64,000 bases of DNA from Octopus vulgaris (Eukaryota), in NCBI GenBank assembly GCA_951406725.2, contig OX597829.1, positions 12,648,001 to 12,712,000 on the forward strand, read 5' to 3'. Below are positions 38,706-64,000 of the stretch, piece by piece. A program made the translations under genes and the position numbers. The notes beneath the pieces are model-generated. The model was not told where the DNA came from. It did not search any database and was given only the letters and a program-made list of their open reading frames with translations. Numbering within the stretch: the first letter of the stretch is position 1; each line of letters opens with the position of its first letter.

Positions 38706-39067
38706 TAAATTAGAGACAAAAGCCACTATTAGGCAAATCATACAATGAGTTCATTGTTTAAACCTCGCCAAGAGAAATATTTAAACCACCTGATGAATGA
38801 CTGTGACTTGAAAATTTAAAGAAATTAACAGCCATGAAACGATCGTAGTGATATATTAATTATATTTTTTAATAATTTTGTTATATATTTAAATAATATA
38901 AATTAAATAATCTTATGTATTGGCTTACGTTTTTCATTGTATGATTTGCCTAATATTGGTTTTGTCTCTAATTTAATATAATATAATAGTTTACTATAAA
39001 ATTGGATTCAATCCTAAATCTGATTTTTCCCTGTAAGTTTGGATTTATTCCCTAATATATATTATTA
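38703..39067 (+). mobile_element. Miniature Penelope-like derivative: inverted 5' arm, hammerhead and 3' tail, set in (TA)n
   Basis: 38703-38748 is the reverse complement of 38934-38978; tail ttttccctgtaagtttg is shared with 54465-54481. Confidence 0.65.
38787..38850 (+). ncRNA. Type I hammerhead ribozyme motif
   Basis: cac CTGATGA atgactgt...acagccat GAAA cgatcg TA gtg. Confidence 0.75.
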
Positions 39068-39765: not shown

Positions 39766-39815
39766 CAAAATCTGTTACTCTGAGTTTCTCGTTGTCGTTC
39801 ATCAGACAGTTTTTG
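39766..39815 (-). ncRNA. Hammerhead motif in the inverted pLTR arm
   Basis: Reverse complement of 44541-44590. Confidence 0.7.
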
Positions 39816-45762: not shown

Positions 45763-47600
45763 ATATTAAATTAGAAATAAAACTACTATTAGGCAAATCA
45801 AACAGTAAAAATAATAAGGCAATACATAGAAATAAAATCAATTACAAAAATATAAAAAATATAAAATATAAAATATAAAAATCCAATTAAAATATTTAAA
45901 TTAAAGTTAAAATTTAAAAACATTATTTAAATTAATAACTTAGACTTATAAATTTTAAATACATATATATATATATATTTATTATTATTTTATTTATTTA
46001 TTTATTAATATTTTTTTTAAACTATCAAAATGTATTAAAAGTTTAATATAAGATAAAGAGTATAAACACTACGATCGTTTCGTGCCCGTAACCAATTCGA
46101 ATAATAATAATAATAATTTAAATTCAATTAATAATTCGAATTATGGTTACAGTCAATCTTCAGATTAATTGTAATATTTTAATAAATAATCAGAAATATT
46201 TAAACAATATTTTTTAAGAAATAAATAATATAATATATTTTCTTATAAAAACTCTATTATCAAACTAGAAACTTAACGATCATGATTATGTCAAAACAAC
46301 GATTATAATGTTAAATATTAATTTTAATTTTTAAGTATTAATTTTTAAGGTAAGAAACCCACCAATAATCTAATATCAATAATAGTCAATATCTAATTAC
46401 ATAAATATTTTACAAAAAATGACTATTCATATTATTAAAATATAAAATTTAAATAATATATAAATTATCAATGGAAATATATAAATGTATATAAATATTA
46501 TAATTAAGATCTAAAATAATCTCTATAAATAAATATATATGCACATATAATAAAGACCTAATAAATTAATTTTTCATATTTAAAGATGAAATAGCTAATT
46601 TCAAAAATACAAATAAACAATCTTAAACGAACGCTATAGCAAATTAACTATCTTTATATCTCGTTGGCTAAATAATAACTTTCAAAAATCTTATATTTAA
46701 AAAACTTAAAGAAATAATCAATTCGTAGTTATATTATATCAAATAAATACTATAAATATATTTATCAATGGGAATATAATAAAGCTAGCAAATAACAATT
46801 TAAAAGGACAATATATAAGTTAAAATAATAATTATATAAAATTTAAAACTACAATTAATGCTATTAATACATGTATATACATGAATCTAACTTAAAACAA
46901 CTCGTATACTTACTATCAAACAACATATATATCGCTAAGTAAGTTCTTACGAATAGACTTAAAGTTAATATCTAATAATTATATAGAAAATTACGATAAT
47001 TAGCTAAACAATGATATTTACATAAACAAACAATAATATAATACCATACGACTTATAAAATATGAAAATTTAAAATTTAAAGATCTTAAATATAAATAAA
47101 TACTTAGCTTAGCGAGGTTTTGCGATGTACTAAAATTTTGAATCGGAAAACGTCTTTACAGCGTTTATAAGAATACTCGTGGAATTACGTTATTAGCAAA
47201 AAAAGAATAAATTGTTGAAGAATTCATTAAGCGTGAGGAACAAATACGCTTTATCAATGAAGATTGTGAATGGGAACAGTTGTGGTTTATCAATAAATGT
47301 AAATAGAATGAAATCACAATGAAGAATAGAATCACTCTATACTATAAGATTTATTAATAAATAACTATCATAAATAATACTTACAGAATAGATTAAATAA
47401 TTAAAAACCACTAATTATTATATATACTCTAAAAATCTTATAAGATTAATAAATATATAAAAAGTTATTATAGTAACCCCTCAACGTACTATTAAATTCT
47501 TTCCCAAATACTCTTATAATTAAAGCTAAAACTAGTGATCATAACCAAAATCTCTAAAATACTTATCAAGATTTGACGTATAACTATACAGGCGTATACA
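45763..47600 (-). mobile_element. Extremely AT-rich Penelope-pLTR-related remnant
   Basis: Starts tattaaattagaaataaaactactattaggcaaatc like 38703; contains a hammerhead motif; right boundary uncertain. Confidence 0.5.
46067..46167 (-). ncRNA. Degenerate hammerhead motif with long stem II
   Basis: CTGAAGA ttgactgtaacca...tggttacgggcac GAAA cgatcg TA gtg; stem I poorly paired. Confidence 0.55.
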
Positions 47601-54929: not shown

Positions 54930-56500
54930 CTCTATAACATTGTTCATTTAAAAAGACACATTTTAAGGTAATAATCCTCTTATAGAGATAACAACAATAT
55001 TAATGCACATTTACACATTTCGGCGCTATGTCTATTCTTTTTCGCCCCCGACCAGGCTGTTGGCTGCCCATAGGTACTGCCTCGAAACCCGGTCGGGGTC
55101 CCAAATTACAATTCTATACCAGTCCTTCATAAAGGAGCCCGCCACCAGTCAAGGCTAAGGGCTCATCCCTCAAAACTCGCTTCCTTAGGAAGCTTTCTAT
55201 TGCCCCTTCCTTCAGAAAGAAAACGATAAACTCGTCTTCCTTCCTTCTGGGATGGGCCACTGCTCCCTCTGTCGAAGGCACACTTCCCACCGACAGAGAT
55301 TCGGGGCACGCTGGCAGTTGATCGTCAACTCCCAGCGATGTCCCATTCTTTTTCTTTTTTTCTCTTCTTGACGGGAGGGTGTAGTTTCTCGAACTTGTCC
55401 GGGAGTCGATCCTTCCCTCCCACCGCCTCTGAATCCATCTTTCTTTTTTTTCCTTTCGAGGGGGTTACCTCCTCCTCAACCTCTCCCTCCGTTATATGAT
55501 CAGGAGTCTCCGTTGGAGGAAAAACATCCTCCTCTATTAATTTCTCTAGTGCCCTTGCTTGGTTCTTGGGGCAATTCTTCTTGATGTGGCCCGATTTCAG
55601 GCATAAGTGACACTTTGTGGTGGGCGTCCCTCAAGAGTCACCGGGTACCTAGAACCGGCCATCTTTAGAAATCTGGGAAAACCAGATCTTTGGCTGATTG
55701 GGTCCATAGGGTCAAAATTGCTTTCGACCCCACCCAATCAGCCACAGGAAGCATTCTAACATTCAAGAGCCTGGCTCTGCTGCCACCCAGACCCCGGCAG
55801 ACAGTGTCCTCTATCCACTCAGGCTCTATTCCGAGGGCTGACTAGCGAACATGCTAGCCTCTTTAGGGGTATCAAACAGCAACCACCCTGTTGAAAATTT
55901 GGCACTCCTTGCAATATACTTGATTGTTGGCAGGTATGTTGCCAACTCTTTTTCAATTTCAACCTGAGAGAACACAGTAATGGTGTCAAGGAACGTGGAG
56001 CATGTCCTCAACACCACCATTCTCTCATTACGGTCCTCTAACCACTGCTTGGGGGGCACAATCACCCACACCAGCACAGTGGTTTTCTTTGTTGCCATAA
56101 TTTAAAACCACAAAGAAAGAAAAGGAGTTCAACAAAAAGTTCAAATGTTCTAAATAAAAGTTCAGTAATAAACACAAAAAAAGAACGGAAAGACAGAGCA
56201 GAGAAAAAGAACGAAGGAAGACAGTTCAATACACGGCAACACAATTCCGCAACTCCGGTAATCCGCAATAATACAGGGTACTCCAGTTGCAGCACAAATT
56301 AGTCCTTCTTTCCTTGGCACTCCTTGCCCGTGGTAAATCCAGTGGAACAAAACAGTAACACAAAGACAATTTTCAGAAATAAATTAATTTTTGCGGAGGG
56401 GCTACGCCTCCTCAAAAACACAATTCTCACTGCAAAGTGAGTCTTTACGCACGACCACAGGCAGACTGTTGCTCACCAAAAAGTATTAAACACATGGCAA
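54930..56500 (-). mobile_element. Decayed L1/Tx1-like ORF1-only element
   Basis: Zinc knuckle TKCHLCLKSGHIKKNCPK at ~55565-55620; no ORF2 seen; boundaries approximate. Confidence 0.55.
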
Positions 56501-56808
56501 CAAACTCCGCTAAGCCCCCCACCCCCAAATATGACAAACGCCTACCTGTAGTCGAGCTTCAACGTTCAATTTTCACGACGAAAGACGTGAAGAGAGGTTA
56601 TGAGAGGTGATGATGTCAATAAGACCCAACGGTATAAGGTAATGCAGAGTAAATGGTATGGACAGACTATAGTTAAGTTCCGGGTTCGGTGATTATGCGA
56701 ATGAGGAATCCAACGTTGGTCATATATCAGCATGTGTATATATATAAAAATTAACAGAATAAGATAAAAATCCAAGGCGGTGAAAGATTTCAGAACATTT
56801 ATAAAGAG

Positions 56809-56856
56809 GTCTTACAGCTGTTTCAGAGATATTTAATATATCCCTTCATCGGAGAC
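56809..56856 (-). ncRNA. Hammerhead motif (CCGATGA variant), left arm
   Basis: gtct CCGATGA agggatatattaaatatctct GAAA cagctg TA agac. Confidence 0.72.
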
Positions 56857-56992
56857 GCTGTGAGATATTGGTTAAGCAATAGTTATTCTAGATAAGATAT
56901 GAAATAGAGTGAAGTCTATTTTAATTCCTCCACTCCATTCTCTATTTCATATCTTATCTAGAATGACTATTGCTTAACCATCTTCTCACACC

Positions 56993-57043
56993 GTCACCGA
57001 TGAAGGGATATATAAAAATATGTCCCAGAAACAGCTGTATGAC
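56993..57043 (+). ncRNA. Hammerhead motif (CCGATGA variant), right arm
   Basis: gtca CCGATGA agggata...tgtccca GAAA cagctg TA tgac. Confidence 0.72.
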
Positions 57044-57761
57044 CTTCTATTTATAAATGTTCTGAAATCTTAAACAGCTTTGGATTTTTATCTCATTCGG
57101 TTAATTTTATATATATATAAATATGTATACATTTAAACATCCTTATCGGTATTTGTCATAGTGGCATATTTTAGTCACACACACATACATGCATACATAC
57201 AAGCATAGTTATTCATACGTATATAAAGGCTGAATATATGCAAAAGATAAACCCCAAAAATATCATAACGTGATGTACAACGAAATATTTATTAATTTAA
57301 CCTCACCTACAAGGCGATGAATGTTTAGTTACTGTTTCTATCAGACTGAAGGAGAAGACACATGTTTCTCGTAATTGCTGGTTCCTTTTTTTCAATATTA
57401 TTTTTTCGTATTTTCGCATTATTTGTATAGAATGAATGTATAAATACATATTCGCTCACACACAAATACATGCGCGCGCGCGCAAACACACACGCACCAC
57501 ACATAGACATATTTTATATCTTTTTCAGTTTTTTTTTATTAGACTGTGGCCATGCAGGGACACCATCTTTTAAGAATATTTTAGTCGAATGGCTCGACCC
57601 CAGTTCTTTCTTTTTAAGCCTTGCACTTATTCTATCGTACATTTTTGCTGAACCGTTAAGTTATGGGGGTGTAAACACGTCATCACCAGTCGTCAAGCAG
57701 TAAAAGAAGGACAAACATAGACACACAGGCGCCGGCGCACACACACACAGACGCTTATATA

Positions 57762-57823: not shown

Positions 57824-58346
57824 TTCAGGTGCCTTGTCCCGGCTTGGAGGGGTGATTGCCTCCCCTTTGCAAATATAAGGACACAGAAAATGTATCAAAG
57901 CCGATAGGAGACGTCGATGTTTCCTAGGGCTAAATGGCGGTGATGTAATTCCCTCACGGGACTGTCACATTGAGTTGACAGTATAAGACCATTATATCGC
58001 TTCACCACCGCTTATGTCTCTCTGAGACATTTAGAAATTCAATATTTCTAATTTCGGTGATCAGTAAATAAAAGTTACTGATAATATGATATATTTGCAG
58101 AGAGGTTGCAGTCATCTCAGCGAGCGAGGCAGGCTGCCCTGAACTGACGACGAGCAATAGACTCAGAAACATAAGTCTTCAGGTGCTTAGTCCTAGTTGG
58201 CGGGAGTAATTGCCTCCCCTTTGCAAATATAAGGACACAGAAAATGTATCAAAGCCGACAGGAGACGTCGATGTTTCCTAGGGCTAAATGGCGGTGGTGT
58301 AATTCCCTTACGGGACTGTCACATTGAGATGACAGTATACGACCAC
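57821..58346 (+). mobile_element. Retrozyme-like element: 1.5 tandem copies of a 354-bp hammerhead-bearing unit in (TA)n
   Basis: 57821-57992 repeats at 58175-58346; no ORF. Confidence 0.75.
58138..58183 (+). ncRNA. Type I hammerhead ribozyme, GUC site
   Basis: cctgaa CTGACGA cgag-caataga-ctca GAAA cataag TC ttcagg; 6-bp stem I. Confidence 0.78.
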
Positions 58347-58370
58347 TATATATATATATATATACACATC

Positions 58371-60036: not shown

Positions 60037-60067
60037 TTGTGTGCATGTGTGTATGTGTGTGTATGTA

Positions 60068-60297
60068 GTGATGGCTTGTTGCCAACTTAATGTGGCAGTA
60101 CCAGGAAAGGGAAGGATGCTACTGCTATTTAGCTCCAAGAAACACCGTTTCCCCTTGGCTACACAACACAAGCATTCTGTGTCCTTAAATTTTCAAACAG
60201 GGGAGATAAGCACATCCACCTAATAAAGCCAGCACCCGGAGACTAGTTTCAGAGTAATTGATCTTCTTCAGTCTGGAGTAGCTTGTTTTTGCTAGCT
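60068..60297 (-). mobile_element. Diverged relative of the 354-bp retrozyme-like unit
   Basis: Minus strand ctcccctgtttgaaaatttaaggacacagaa matches ctcccctttgcaaatataaggacacagaa; same end point. Confidence 0.7.
60236..60276 (-). ncRNA. Type I hammerhead motif, GUC site
   Basis: ccaga CTGAAGA aga-tcaattac-tct GAAA ctag TC tccgg. Confidence 0.72.
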
Positions 60298-62038
60298 TTT
60301 TTTTTCTTTATTATAAGCATATAGCTCTTACAGAGAAGGGACGAACAACGACAGACAACACAATACAGTGGGGTACATAATACGAAAATCGAATGAATAT
60401 GAATATAGTGATATAATGAAAAAAATGAAATGTCTTATTTGTGCCCCACACGCAAACAGTTTCCTTTAACTGCTTATGCAATTCATGTCCGTGTACAGTA
60501 TATGTTCCTTTTTTTAAAAAAATCACATTACAATTTAGCAATTTTACTTACTTTTATATTCATCGACAACGTATTGCACAATGTCCTCGAATGTCACCAC
60601 TGGTGGCAGCTCGTTACATCGAAATCACAGATTCGTCAATTTAATCCGCTCACCGAACAATTCTTCCAATTTATCCGCTCTATTACTTTCCAGCAAAACC
60701 GCTGTCATCCTATGTATATTCTCTTCCCGTTATCTTAACTCTTATGACATTTTTCATCTTCGTAATCCTCTTCTCTATCTCTATACTTTTCTTGTATTTC
60801 ACCATCTTCCTCATATTTCTTCTTTGCGGTACCTCTTCCCACTTTCCATCTCCACTCCCTCCCGTTTTTTCCTGGTATTTGTGTGTCCATCTTACTGCCA
60901 CTCCTCGTTGTTGCTTCCTTTCCTTTCTGCACACTTTCTTTTTCATTTGTTCTCGCTTCTACAATTTTCTTTTTACTCCTTCTACACCCTGTATCAACAT
61001 CTCCAAATTGTCTTTTCTCTTTGTTTGCGAGGCTTTTTGGAGGCGATAATGCATTTTCCTCCCTCTTTTTCATTCTCTTTCCGACTGGGTGTTTCGCTTC
61101 TACTGCTTCCATCACTTCCTTTATCTGGCCTTGCACCACAACACCTTACTTCCACTCCTCCTGCTGCTGCTCCTGTTCTTCCTCCTGTTCCACTTCTTGT
61201 TTCTGGAACACCTCGCTTGCATGTGTTCCAGTGGTGGCAGATGGGAGGTCTTTTCTACCAATCATAGTTTGACGTCGTCCGGTAACACATTCTCATAAAA
61301 AAATTTATGTAGATCTGGGACGTTGATTTGGACCGTCACCTCAAGGCCGTATCCAAACCAGTTCACCTCCGTTGTTCTCGTGACCTTCAGGACATTGGTT
61401 TCCTCCTCGGTGTAGAAGAGGATAGCCGTCACCAGTCACGTTTCATCAATTTCTGGGGCACTCTGCCAATCCTAATTCTAGCCGCACGTTTGCCACAATA
61501 GGTTGGCAGTAGTGCCCACTCATCCGACCTTAATCACACAGTGGAGCACTTTACTGCATCTTGTTCGGTTGCAAACAGTGCCTCCACTTTGCTGTACTTC
61601 TTGCCTTTTTTTTGCTGTTTCTTCCAATATTTCTTTTGGAGGGGTCAGTCTCAGGCTGTTTCCTTCTTTAGCAATTAGCTCGTTAGCTTTTTTAATTCTT
61701 CTTTCGTCGAACTTGACTTCCTTGACCTGCACCAGGTCGCCATTTATACCCCTTCTTACTGCTGTAGCATAGCTAACGGCTGGTTGAGTATCCATAACTT
61801 CGTTGCTCATAAAAGTTTTCAGAAATTGTCTTCAGAAATTCACAATTCAATAAATAATTTGCAGAAATTTTCTACCCCGTAGGGCGAAAATTACAGTTTT
61901 CCACAGGACAACAGTTCAAATTTCAATAAAATTTTCAATACAAATATAACAAAATTCACAATAACAGAACAGGAAACGAGCTCACATACCGCAGGTAACA
62001 ACTGAAAACAACACCGTGTCGTAGAGAAAAAAGGTGTG
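60298..62038 (-). mobile_element. L1/Tx1-like ORF1-only non-autonomous element with AATAAA + poly(A) end
   Basis: MSNEVMDTQPAVSYATAV start, decayed RPPICH knuckle region, K/E-rich tail; gctagcaa duplicated at both ends. Confidence 0.6.
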
Positions 62039-62052
62039 GCCTTGCTAGCTGA

Positions 62053-64000
62053 ATTTTTTATTACGTTTCTAAAAATCTTGCACAGATGGGGATATTACAA
62101 GACATTACTAATACATAAAGATGTTATGATGAGATCATATCTACATTTTAAAAATTTGAATTTCAGCTTTATACAATTTAATTTTGACTTGTTTTTAAAA
62201 CTTTTCCTTTTTAAAACCAAGGGAACGCACCTGGCAGCCTGTAAGGCTCAGCAACAATCTATTTCTTCCTTCGTTGATGATTAAGCTGGTTTACTAACAC
62301 CCACCTTTCTCATCCCATCCTTCCATCGTTTTTCATACACGCTTCGCGACAGGGTTTTCCTCACCAACCCCATCTTGCTCTTCAGATGGTACCTGACATA
62401 AGTTAGCAACCGGGGGCCAGAGAAGAAGGACCCTCTCTACGATACCTTCCAATCTAGATCTCCATACGTACTCTTTCAATATTGTAACCGTAGAGAGAAA
62501 ACACGGAGTTCTGTTGGCGGTACCATATTTATTATAGATCCATCCGATAGCCATACTTTTCCCAGATGCGACAAGACGTGTTCTACGTAATTTATCAAGC
62601 TTGACAGCTCCGGACATTGTACAAAAGCGTGCTGAACTGTTTCGTCGTCCAGCCCACATCTTGGACATGTCGGTGGCACTGACATTCCGTGCCTGTATAA
62701 CTTATCGCGAGCAGGTAGAGCATTCCTGTATACAGCCAGGCCAGGGACTTTTGGTAATTATACAAATATCCTGGCCTGACAGTCCCACGAAACATGTTGG
62801 CGAGTTGGTTCTCGTCGAAGGACTGCTTACTTACATGTGGACTGCTAATTTACATGTGTCACATCTAGGACGACCAGCCTACTTTCTGGGTCTAGAAAGA
62901 CAGTACTTACTTGTAAGTCCAAGCTCTTCCTGATAAAGATTGCCACGCCCCCTCCTCTTCCTCGGCTAGGAGAAATAAAAGAGGCGAGAACGCTTGAGGT
63001 CTGCTCATCTTGGACTCGGTTGCAATAGCCACATCTACTCCTTGTGTCCTAAGGCAATCCAGGAAACAATCCTGATTCCATTTCGACCCCATTCCACGCA
63101 CATTCGCACAGTTTAATTTAATCATCGATGGAAGAAAAATGTTTTACTTGCGGTTGAGAAAGGGAGCATGACAGTTTATGTTTGCTTGCTTCCTCCACAC
63201 TCCCCGTAGCTGCTGGGTTTTTCACCGGCGTTGCCACCAGGCCCTAGGTTGGTGTGGCTGCCGGACTAATAAGTAGTTTACCCGCTATCACCTCTTCGGT
63301 AACGTCTTTTGTGGTATTGTTCTTTAAATGTTCTTGAAGCTTCTCCATCCATTCTTCGTCTCCAATCTTCGCATAGCGAACGTCAGACTTATTGTCTGCC
63401 GTTTTGTGGAAAAGTTTTATTTTATTTATTTTTATGTACCGAAAACCTTACCCGTTTTTCTTATGAAAAACAATGATTTTATCATTTTTTAAAAAACATT
63501 TTTGCTTGCAGGTGGGGTCAAACTATGTTCCAATTAATGTAATGCCAACGGGGTGGGATTGGGGAATTGTTTTGTGCTGTTCGTCTGTAGATATTTTTTG
63601 TATGGGGTAGTGTACTTTATTCCAGATAGGTGCCATACATTTTTCTACTGCTTCATTTTTTACGTCCATTATACGCTTTTCTTTGATGTTGTCGACTTTG
63701 TACACAACTGTTTTCGCATTAATGACTTGTACTGTCTCAAGGGGCGGCAGCAACTTGGTCTACGCTCCACTTTTTTTTAAATTAGATTTCTAAACTTGAA
63801 TAGCTGATCCAATGTTACTTCAAGTTCTGTAACGTTGCCGCCATCCGTGGTTGAAAAACTCTGTTTCTTCTTGGTATCCTGCTGGTTCACAGTTTCATTT
63901 CCTTTTCCCATCTCGGGAAAATCCTTTTTTGACGAAAGATCGAATTCCATATCCAGACTTGTCACGAATGACAAGAAAAAGTTTCAGAAAAAATAACCAG
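62053..64000 (-). mobile_element. Internally deleted L1/Tx1 element (ORF1 remnant, APE N-terminus, C-terminal Cys-rich domain)
   Basis: MIKLNCANVRGM..DVAIATES at 63125; CPRCGLDDETVQHAFVQCP at ~62670; RT absent; runs off the window. Confidence 0.75.

Follow-up and report, generated by a model that had tools for sequence, protein, structure and literature searches.

Among retrotransposons without long terminal repeats (non-LTR elements), Keno is a member of the Tx1 clade that is specific for U2 small nuclear RNA (snRNA) genes, and Utopia uses the same site. Elements of the Tx1-Mar and SINEU type carry 5′ heads derived from U1 or U2, and the available parts of PMC4494074 propose that they are transcribed from the flank; the same parts cite R2, in the 28S ribosomal DNA, as relying on transcription of its target and on ribozyme processing of the cotranscript. 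Ty3 is described, in what was available of PMC5911963, as inserting within 1–4 nt of the start site through TFIIIB. Two kinds of repeat are also pertinent, namely non-LTR retrozymes, which the accessible portions of PMC7229834 and 10.64898/2026.07.22.740005 describe as arrays of ~360-nt units that bear a type I hammerhead ribozyme, and satellite 2 of newts, whose snRNA-type promoter we cite second-hand from a part of PMC2220036. For an octopus, PMC13282606 reports 13 recently active L1-Tx1 families, and the accessible portion of its main text makes no mention of hammerhead, snRNA or target site. Here we analyze a stretch of 64,000 nucleotides of Octopus vulgaris (assembly GCA_951406725.2, contig OX597829.1, positions 12,648,001 to 12,712,000; hereafter the window), in which two non-LTR elements, A and B, are stacked on the minus strand just upstream of a hammerhead, together with their relatives in the 2.8-Gb genome; all counts are from best-scoring subsets of the matches. 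The elements appear to be target-specific and Tx1-like, with the start site (+1) of snRNA-type promoters as their rule and hammerhead retrozymes as their commonest host. We consider it probable that A and B are defective members of a lineage, likely of the Tx1 clade, that targets +1 of U1, U2 and the predicted +1 of snRNA-type promoters in hammerhead repeats. The features concerned are as follows.

60298–62036, minus strand: element A, a 1.74-kb non-autonomous non-LTR element with a decayed open reading frame 1 (ORF1) only (ORF1 matches of 43% and 33%, no ORF2 match), a polyadenylation signal and a short A run
61271–61587, minus strand: ORF1 remnant of element A, resembling by sequence comparison ORF1 of intact relatives (with CCHC knuckle)
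62037–62050, minus strand: 5′ copy of the 14-bp target-site duplication, between the tail of element B and the 5′ end of element A
60284–60297, minus strand: 3′ copy of the 14-bp duplication, which makes up positions +1 to +14 of the hammerhead repeat and is identical to the 5′ copy at 11 of 14 positions
60227–60297, minus strand: putative type I hammerhead, called from core and stems, with its core from 60271 and predicted cleavage between 60241 and 60240
60067–60297, minus strand: downstream part of a repeat of hammerhead family H1 (retrozyme-like), with a dinucleotide microsatellite at its end
62051–64000, minus strand: element B, an internally deleted two-ORF element, extending beyond the window for about 80 nt to where a Penelope element interrupts it
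63151–63980, minus strand: ORF1 remnant of element B (53–60% identity to intact ORF1)
62839–63125, minus strand: first ~100 codons of the apurinic-endonuclease-like (APE) endonuclease of element B (72–77% identity)
62275–62819, minus strand: C-terminal end of ORF2 of element B, the last ~190 codons with a zf-RVT domain, the reverse transcriptase (RT) domain being deleted
58060–58369, plus strand: empty copy of a related hammerhead repeat, with its core at 58144 and a weak promoter-like motif at 58060

On the minus strand the end of element A can be read directly, as the original prediction had it: a polyadenylation signal at 60312–60307 and nine A's, followed by the target motif from 60297 and the hammerhead core from 60271. 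The 9-nt motif recurs from 62050, between the tail of element B and the 5′ end of element A, and its third occurrence in the window, at 46783, is unrelated. A target duplication of about 9–13 bp had been proposed; the duplication is present, and its length is 14 bp (62050–62037 against 60297–60284) because this is what comparison with other copies gives. The uninterrupted relative pointed out at 58117 is indeed a related hammerhead repeat, but of a different family (67% identity) and thus a proxy only, true empty sites being found elsewhere. Cleavage is predicted after +57, that is 57 nt behind element A, close to the ~60 nt originally foreseen.

Family A was sampled with the 3′ end of element A as the query (43 matches from 40 of 132 candidates scored, the top 30 loci being used), which held 15 nt of flank and may be slightly biased to on-target copies; the junction counts, tail lengths and comparison of endonuclease-region columns are hand counts. 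Of 31 distinct 3′ junctions, 13 (window included) led into H1, 9 into the 5′ end of another element and 2 into four target bases followed by divergent sequence, and 7 belonged to a diverged sister family, E, with other flanks. Collection of 3′ junctions across the genome, which had been suggested as a check, thus placed 22 of 24 family A junctions on target. On the 5′ side, 30 junctions were collected and one at a locus edge was dropped; all 29 usable ones were on target, 11 joined to the upstream half of H1 and 18 to the tail of another element. Among B-type 3′ ends, the four closest were likewise all on target. A search with the H1 repeat itself gave 2,005 candidates, and among 29 other loci taken from these 4 had an element tail at the site, with most of the remainder uninterrupted across it, i.e. 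empty sites. Because empty sites carry the motif and 5′-truncated relatives occupy their own sites (L277 with a full 17-nt duplication, L337 at U1 +1), the motif belongs to the target and not to the element consensus, as had been argued from the window. The idea that two different elements had used one site was also borne out, since different families stack independently and share a site in differing orders, which we propose is because each insertion leaves a duplicated site. The target site is real and non-random.

With the coding end of element B as the query, intact relatives were found whose ORF2 of 1,129–1,132 amino acids has APE, RT and zf-RVT domains; in L157 and L160 these were PF03372, PF00078 and PF13966, with PF00098 in ORF1 (CCHC knuckle). 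The 3′ ends of relatives lie at U2 +1 and directly before further hammerhead repeats, H1b and H2–H7; one related copy, at U1 +1, came from a pattern search. Together, the targets of the lineage comprise eight hammerhead-repeat families with different sequences plus +1 of U1 and U2. The expectation of a Tx1 lineage specific for a single ribozyme-bearing repeat was therefore right about the kind of target and too narrow about its range. Insertion is in the sense direction with duplications of 14–22 bp, and at +1 it leaves a complete U2 or U1 sequence downstream, separated from its promoter. Five near-identical full-length elements of one family, Y2, form two stacks with one 362-nt hammerhead unit between them (L156–L159; G000:C2, about 73.04–73.07 Mb).

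The RT is by its sequence one of the L1 group, the best solved-structure match being LINE-1 ORF2p (E 4e-66, versus E 4e-23 for R2), and its closest named homolog is from Argonauta hians (63%). An autonomous partner and a place in an RT tree had been called for. Intact APE-RT relatives exist, and in a FastTree phylogeny of 105 sequences and 370 columns, built without named references for Tx1 or L1, the lineage shares a clade (support 0.954) with three elements of the internal U2 site. Membership in the Tx1 clade is likely on these sequences. A target preference of the Tx1 type, with more than 20% of flanks of one type and a duplication, was found for family A (22/24) and for a young family, Y1 (14/14), but not for a sister family, Z. 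Three relatives from metagenomes end at an internal U2 site near +37, which we take to be the Keno site. Within the lineage no Keno-type 3′ junction at the internal U2 site was found, its U2 junctions lying at +1 and the internal site occurring in distant relatives only, and 42 metagenome relatives scanned had no convincing hammerhead behind the 3′ end. Distant relatives were seen in other animals (L357, L358, L359, L360, L363 and L371), three ending at the internal U2 site and five having U1- or U2-derived heads.

What the targets have in common lies upstream. A hexamer promoter core is present at −56 to −61 in 27 of 30 loci of U1, in 28 of 28 of U2 once two with element tails are set aside, and in 18 of 20 of U5; in two U4 genes viewed, which were not in the training set, it was at −58 in one and degenerate in the other. 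Another 36 weaker, dispersed U4-like matches (L444–L452 and others), many of them partial, are possibly retrocopies or a U4-derived repeat. The promoter motif stands at −57 to −60 before the insertion points in seven hammerhead families (H2 left out) and in U2, a fixed distance across unrelated targets, and a variant of it lies ahead of the U1 insertion. A weight matrix was built from 14 non-redundant snRNA instances, and 20,000 random positions served as background for scoring the flanks upstream of insertions: 6/6 H5 flanks and 2/3 H6 flanks reached the top 0.01%, 5/5 H7 flanks were at 0.3%, and for H1b, H3 and H4 one locus each had a score above 8, at −58 or −59. Among unfilled H1 rows, 18 of 25 were in about the top 1%, with the motif some 59 nt from the duplication start (hand count). 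By position and analogy, the motif is a putative proximal sequence element. Directly before +1 of one U1 gene, 13 nt match the H1 upstream region (L190, 1400–1500), which suggests that the H1 promoter may derive from a U1-type promoter.

Y1 gives the clearest view of recent insertion. An element-only pattern search found 14 copies, all at promoter sites, 5 at U2 +1 (one stacked), 6 in H5 and 3 in H6, and the duplication was at least 14 bp in each copy with a surviving 5′ end; L152, an additional copy, lacks its 3′ end. Divergence among the 13 alignable copies is 0–3%, in a comparison that rests on distance and column tables with the 5′-truncated L266 disregarded, most tree nodes being weak. 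In H5 and H6 the last 1.5 kb of the elements differ by 0–1.6% and the flanks by 1–17%, and such near-identical elements with diverged flanks imply that they inserted separately, each in an older repeat. Common to the Y1 targets are 4 nt at +1 and two G's at +11/+12, and H6 and U2 agree in their first 6 nt. A consensus common to the U2, H5 and H6 targets, drawn after the fact, occurs 6,176 times in the genome (control 3,030); among the first 100 matches listed, about half were by eye one sequence resembling a short interspersed element (SINE), and at most 25 resembled H5 or H6. It is possible that the Y1 endonuclease has a stricter preference than this consensus. In the endonuclease region, no listed column separates the Y1 target classes.

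All four Y1 copies at U2 with a 5′ end carry a 14-nt leader between the duplication and the element, matching H6 +1 to +14 at 13 of 14 positions, and an extra leader was found in 0/9 copies in hammerhead repeats; by hand arithmetic the odds of such a split are 1 in 715, or 1 in 55 if three copies of one U2 cluster count as one. The U2 copies also share three diagnostic bases, none in the endonuclease region. Read most simply, these sequences mean that H6 +1 was the exact start of the RNA of an ancestor, and that the descendants of this ancestor go back to U2. The exact source copy of the leader was not found in the genome; one genomic match was considered as a hammerhead source and rejected, not being a hammerhead repeat. 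In L171 the leader equals U1 +1 to +17, the copy lies off target within a U2 cluster, with the first six bases of U1 at the start of its 3′ flank; L279 resembles it, and both off-target copies start with the first 6–7 nt of U1. Tail length was mostly fixed, with a 5-nt spacer in 22 of 58 pattern matches and one of 4–6 nt in 32, versus 10 control matches in all (hand count), and such tails would fit read-through RNA paired to the primer better than poly(A) priming. The 3′ end of the RNA may be made by the hammerhead, by polyadenylation in the flank or by processing of the snRNA type. Of five matches with a 10-nt spacer, the one viewed was rejected as a member of the lineage, being a SINE tail.

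In the hammerhead of the window, +1 to +8 form the distal part of stem I, and stems I and II have one mismatch each. Rfam at the gathering score gave 0 matches in the window, so the call rests on core nucleotides and stems; an HH9 match (E 0.0066) was obtained in 1 of 8 hammerhead loci. The conserved core, stems I and II and the NUH triplet of a type I hammerhead are present, and the folding z-scores of two window hammerheads were not significant (−1.09 and +0.32). Stem III is minimal here, as in certain hammerhead forms that cleave as dimers. One family has a paired core change from C3-G8 to U3-A8, and young tandem retrozyme arrays with the U3-A8 hammerhead were seen at L276 and L278; H2 and H4 hammerheads appear decayed. 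In six families the core begins at +26 or +27, and in two others at +33; H1b and H2–H7 differ in sequence over the first 25–32 nt, and a predicted hairpin arm starts at every target. H7 occurs as arrays of 362-nt units, short tandem non-coding units with one hammerhead each, and H1, H5 and H6 were observed as partial tandem or inverted copies; no protein-coding Penelope was linked to the target repeats. It is possible that the hammerhead trims element RNA, but the ribozyme is not required for targeting, because U1 and U2 have none.

Several observations weigh against a simple rule of insertion at snRNA-type start sites. Y1 is absent from H1 and U1 though both carry the motif, and because of this the promoter alone does not decide the target. 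In the H6 copy L167 the motif is displaced by a 10-nt deletion. Family Z was dispersed in 11 of 11 junctions, five of which had 14–20 bp duplications and no promoter motif; the 7 junctions of family E had unrelated flanks; 2 of 8 Y2 junctions were off target; and Rfam gave no match in 12 loci of families E and Z scanned. Furthermore, the 6 copies tried included no H1-targeting one whose RT was unbroken, and no long RT frame was present at 16 of 23 own loci tried. Three family Z loci (L329, L335, L089) have a 5′ leader like one of the family's own target sites, hinting that its parent once resided at a small-RNA gene. Family E (L316–L324, L327), with its fixed short tail, has varied 3′ flanks that recur in pairs, and these may be 5′ ends of other elements or unrecognised start sites.

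The positions, the duplications, the shared upstream motif and the independence of the insertions are observed, and elements residing at a host start site likely borrow the host promoter. In the mechanism that we propose for the probable reading, the bound promoter complex, or the DNA it opens, would direct a loosely specific endonuclease to the start site; the inserted element would be transcribed from host +1 and its RNA would read through into the target, where the hammerhead would cut 56–67 nt behind the element; and pairing of the RNA flank with the nicked primer would fix the 3′ register and bias daughters to the parent's kind of target. A bolder form of this account, to which we give less than even odds, is that the lineage is recruited to +1 by the snRNA (SNAPc-type) RNA polymerase II (Pol II) initiation complex, as a parasite of the promoters of spliceosomal RNA genes and retrozymes alike, with the host ribozyme trimming read-through RNA into a guide tail and target choice being heritable without protein change. 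A rather doubtful alternative keeps the pairing of the RNA flank and dispenses with promoter recognition, such that read-through flanks pair with homologous nicked DNA and bring each copy back to its parent's target, and only copies at start sites are transcribed and have offspring, the promoter link arising by selection. This would suit the inheritance of target marked by the leader and three diagnostic bases in the U2 subfamily, the off-target L171 and L279 beginning with U1 bases, the first 6 nt common to H6 and U2, and the dispersal of family Z. Against it, Y1 has switched target at least 2 times among three types, and of its 14 copies none stands at any of the thousands of sites with the short match but no promoter, where dead off-target copies would be expected.

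Ordinary Tx1-style recognition, with the APE domain of each family reading a sequence or hairpin and no causal part for the promoter, seems to us unlikely, even though endonuclease specificity is the accepted determinant in Tx1 elements (as given in the available parts of PMC4494074), each family is confined to few targets or a single one, the bases noted at +1 and +11/+12 are common to the Y1 targets, and all targets open a predicted hairpin arm. The consensus of the shared targets is too common in the genome for this, ten different targets lie at the same distance from one upstream motif, and target class is inherited without a fixed endonuclease difference. Far less probable still is that the elements are passengers amplified inside retrozyme units, or that motif and hammerhead are part of the element. 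Y2 copies standing between two hammerheads in young 362-nt tandem units that are 95–100% alike would agree with passage of this kind, which may hold for some of them; for Y1 and the H1 stacks the idea is largely refuted, by the majority of empty sites, the 5′-truncated copies at their sites, the near-identical elements with diverged flanks, the different orders of families at one site and the use of U1 and U2 as well.

Beyond the right end of the window, by about 80 nt, a Penelope element stands in place of the first ~150 nt of element B, and the upstream half of H1, looked for behind the 5′ end of element B, was not found in 9 kb beyond the window. This Penelope-like element (L091, 1127–2900, plus strand) has an RT and is inserted in the 5′ untranslated region of element B; it carries a small inversion on the 5′ side and, close to the 3′ end, a hammerhead-like motif of its own, and a 95%-identical copy lies in L322. 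Within the window, 56731–57125 is an imperfect palindrome of ~400 bp with arms 82% identical, resembling a miniature inverted-repeat transposable element; 55100–56300 (minus strand) holds another decayed ORF1-like element, with a zinc knuckle; and more hammerhead-core-like motifs lie at 38790 (plus), 39805 (minus), 44551 (plus) and 28792 (minus), those at 39805 and 44551 forming an inverted pair.

Target choice of APE-type elements is usually ascribed to the endonuclease, and here one nearly invariant protein is found at three sequences with a promoter in common. It appears that subfamilies retain a memory of their target, and young intact copies would allow both promoter tethering and guidance by an RNA flank to be tested. 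The insertions also mark where transcription of animal retrozymes likely starts; for such repeats we found an snRNA-type promoter reported only in newt. Elements with U1 or U2 heads, such as SINEU, could arise simply by this route, their transcription being left open in the available parts of PMC4494074. A retrotransposon landing at a chosen start site could interest gene-insertion work. In the portions of the literature on retrozymes and newt satellite 2 that were available, no account of retrotransposons targeting them was found, and the parts consulted of the Tx1 literature, including PMC4494074 and PMC4640811 (Kojima and Fujiwara 2004, Coats 1994 and Repbase Reports being outside this scope), gave no Tx1 insertion at snRNA +1 or in hammerhead repeats.

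The lineage resembles Keno in being an APE-RT element inserted in sense in U2 genes, but inserts at U2 +1 rather than at an internal site and uses hammerhead repeats as well. With Xenopus Tx1 in Tx1D, crocodilian Tx1-Mar and SINEU it has in common, going by the available parts of PMC4494074, a target in another mobile element and tandem insertions that sandwich the duplication; the targets of the Xenopus and crocodilian elements, however, are DNA or LTR transposons and microsatellites, and what was available mentions neither a ribozyme nor a position defined by a promoter, and explains the heads by template switching, not by residence at +1. R2 differs in having its own 5′ ribozyme and a restriction-like endonuclease, whereas the ribozyme here is the host repeat's and lies 3′ of the element. 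In their sequence the target repeats resemble non-LTR retrozymes, whose units of about 360 nt stand in tandem and bear a type I hammerhead. In the sources available, Ty3 and TRE5-A are similar in having a position set relative to a small-RNA promoter, but Ty3 is an LTR element, TRE5-A inserts 40–54 bp upstream and in the opposite direction, and both use polymerase III factors, whereas the octopus lineage, known from its positions, inserts in the sense direction at promoters of the U1/U2 type.

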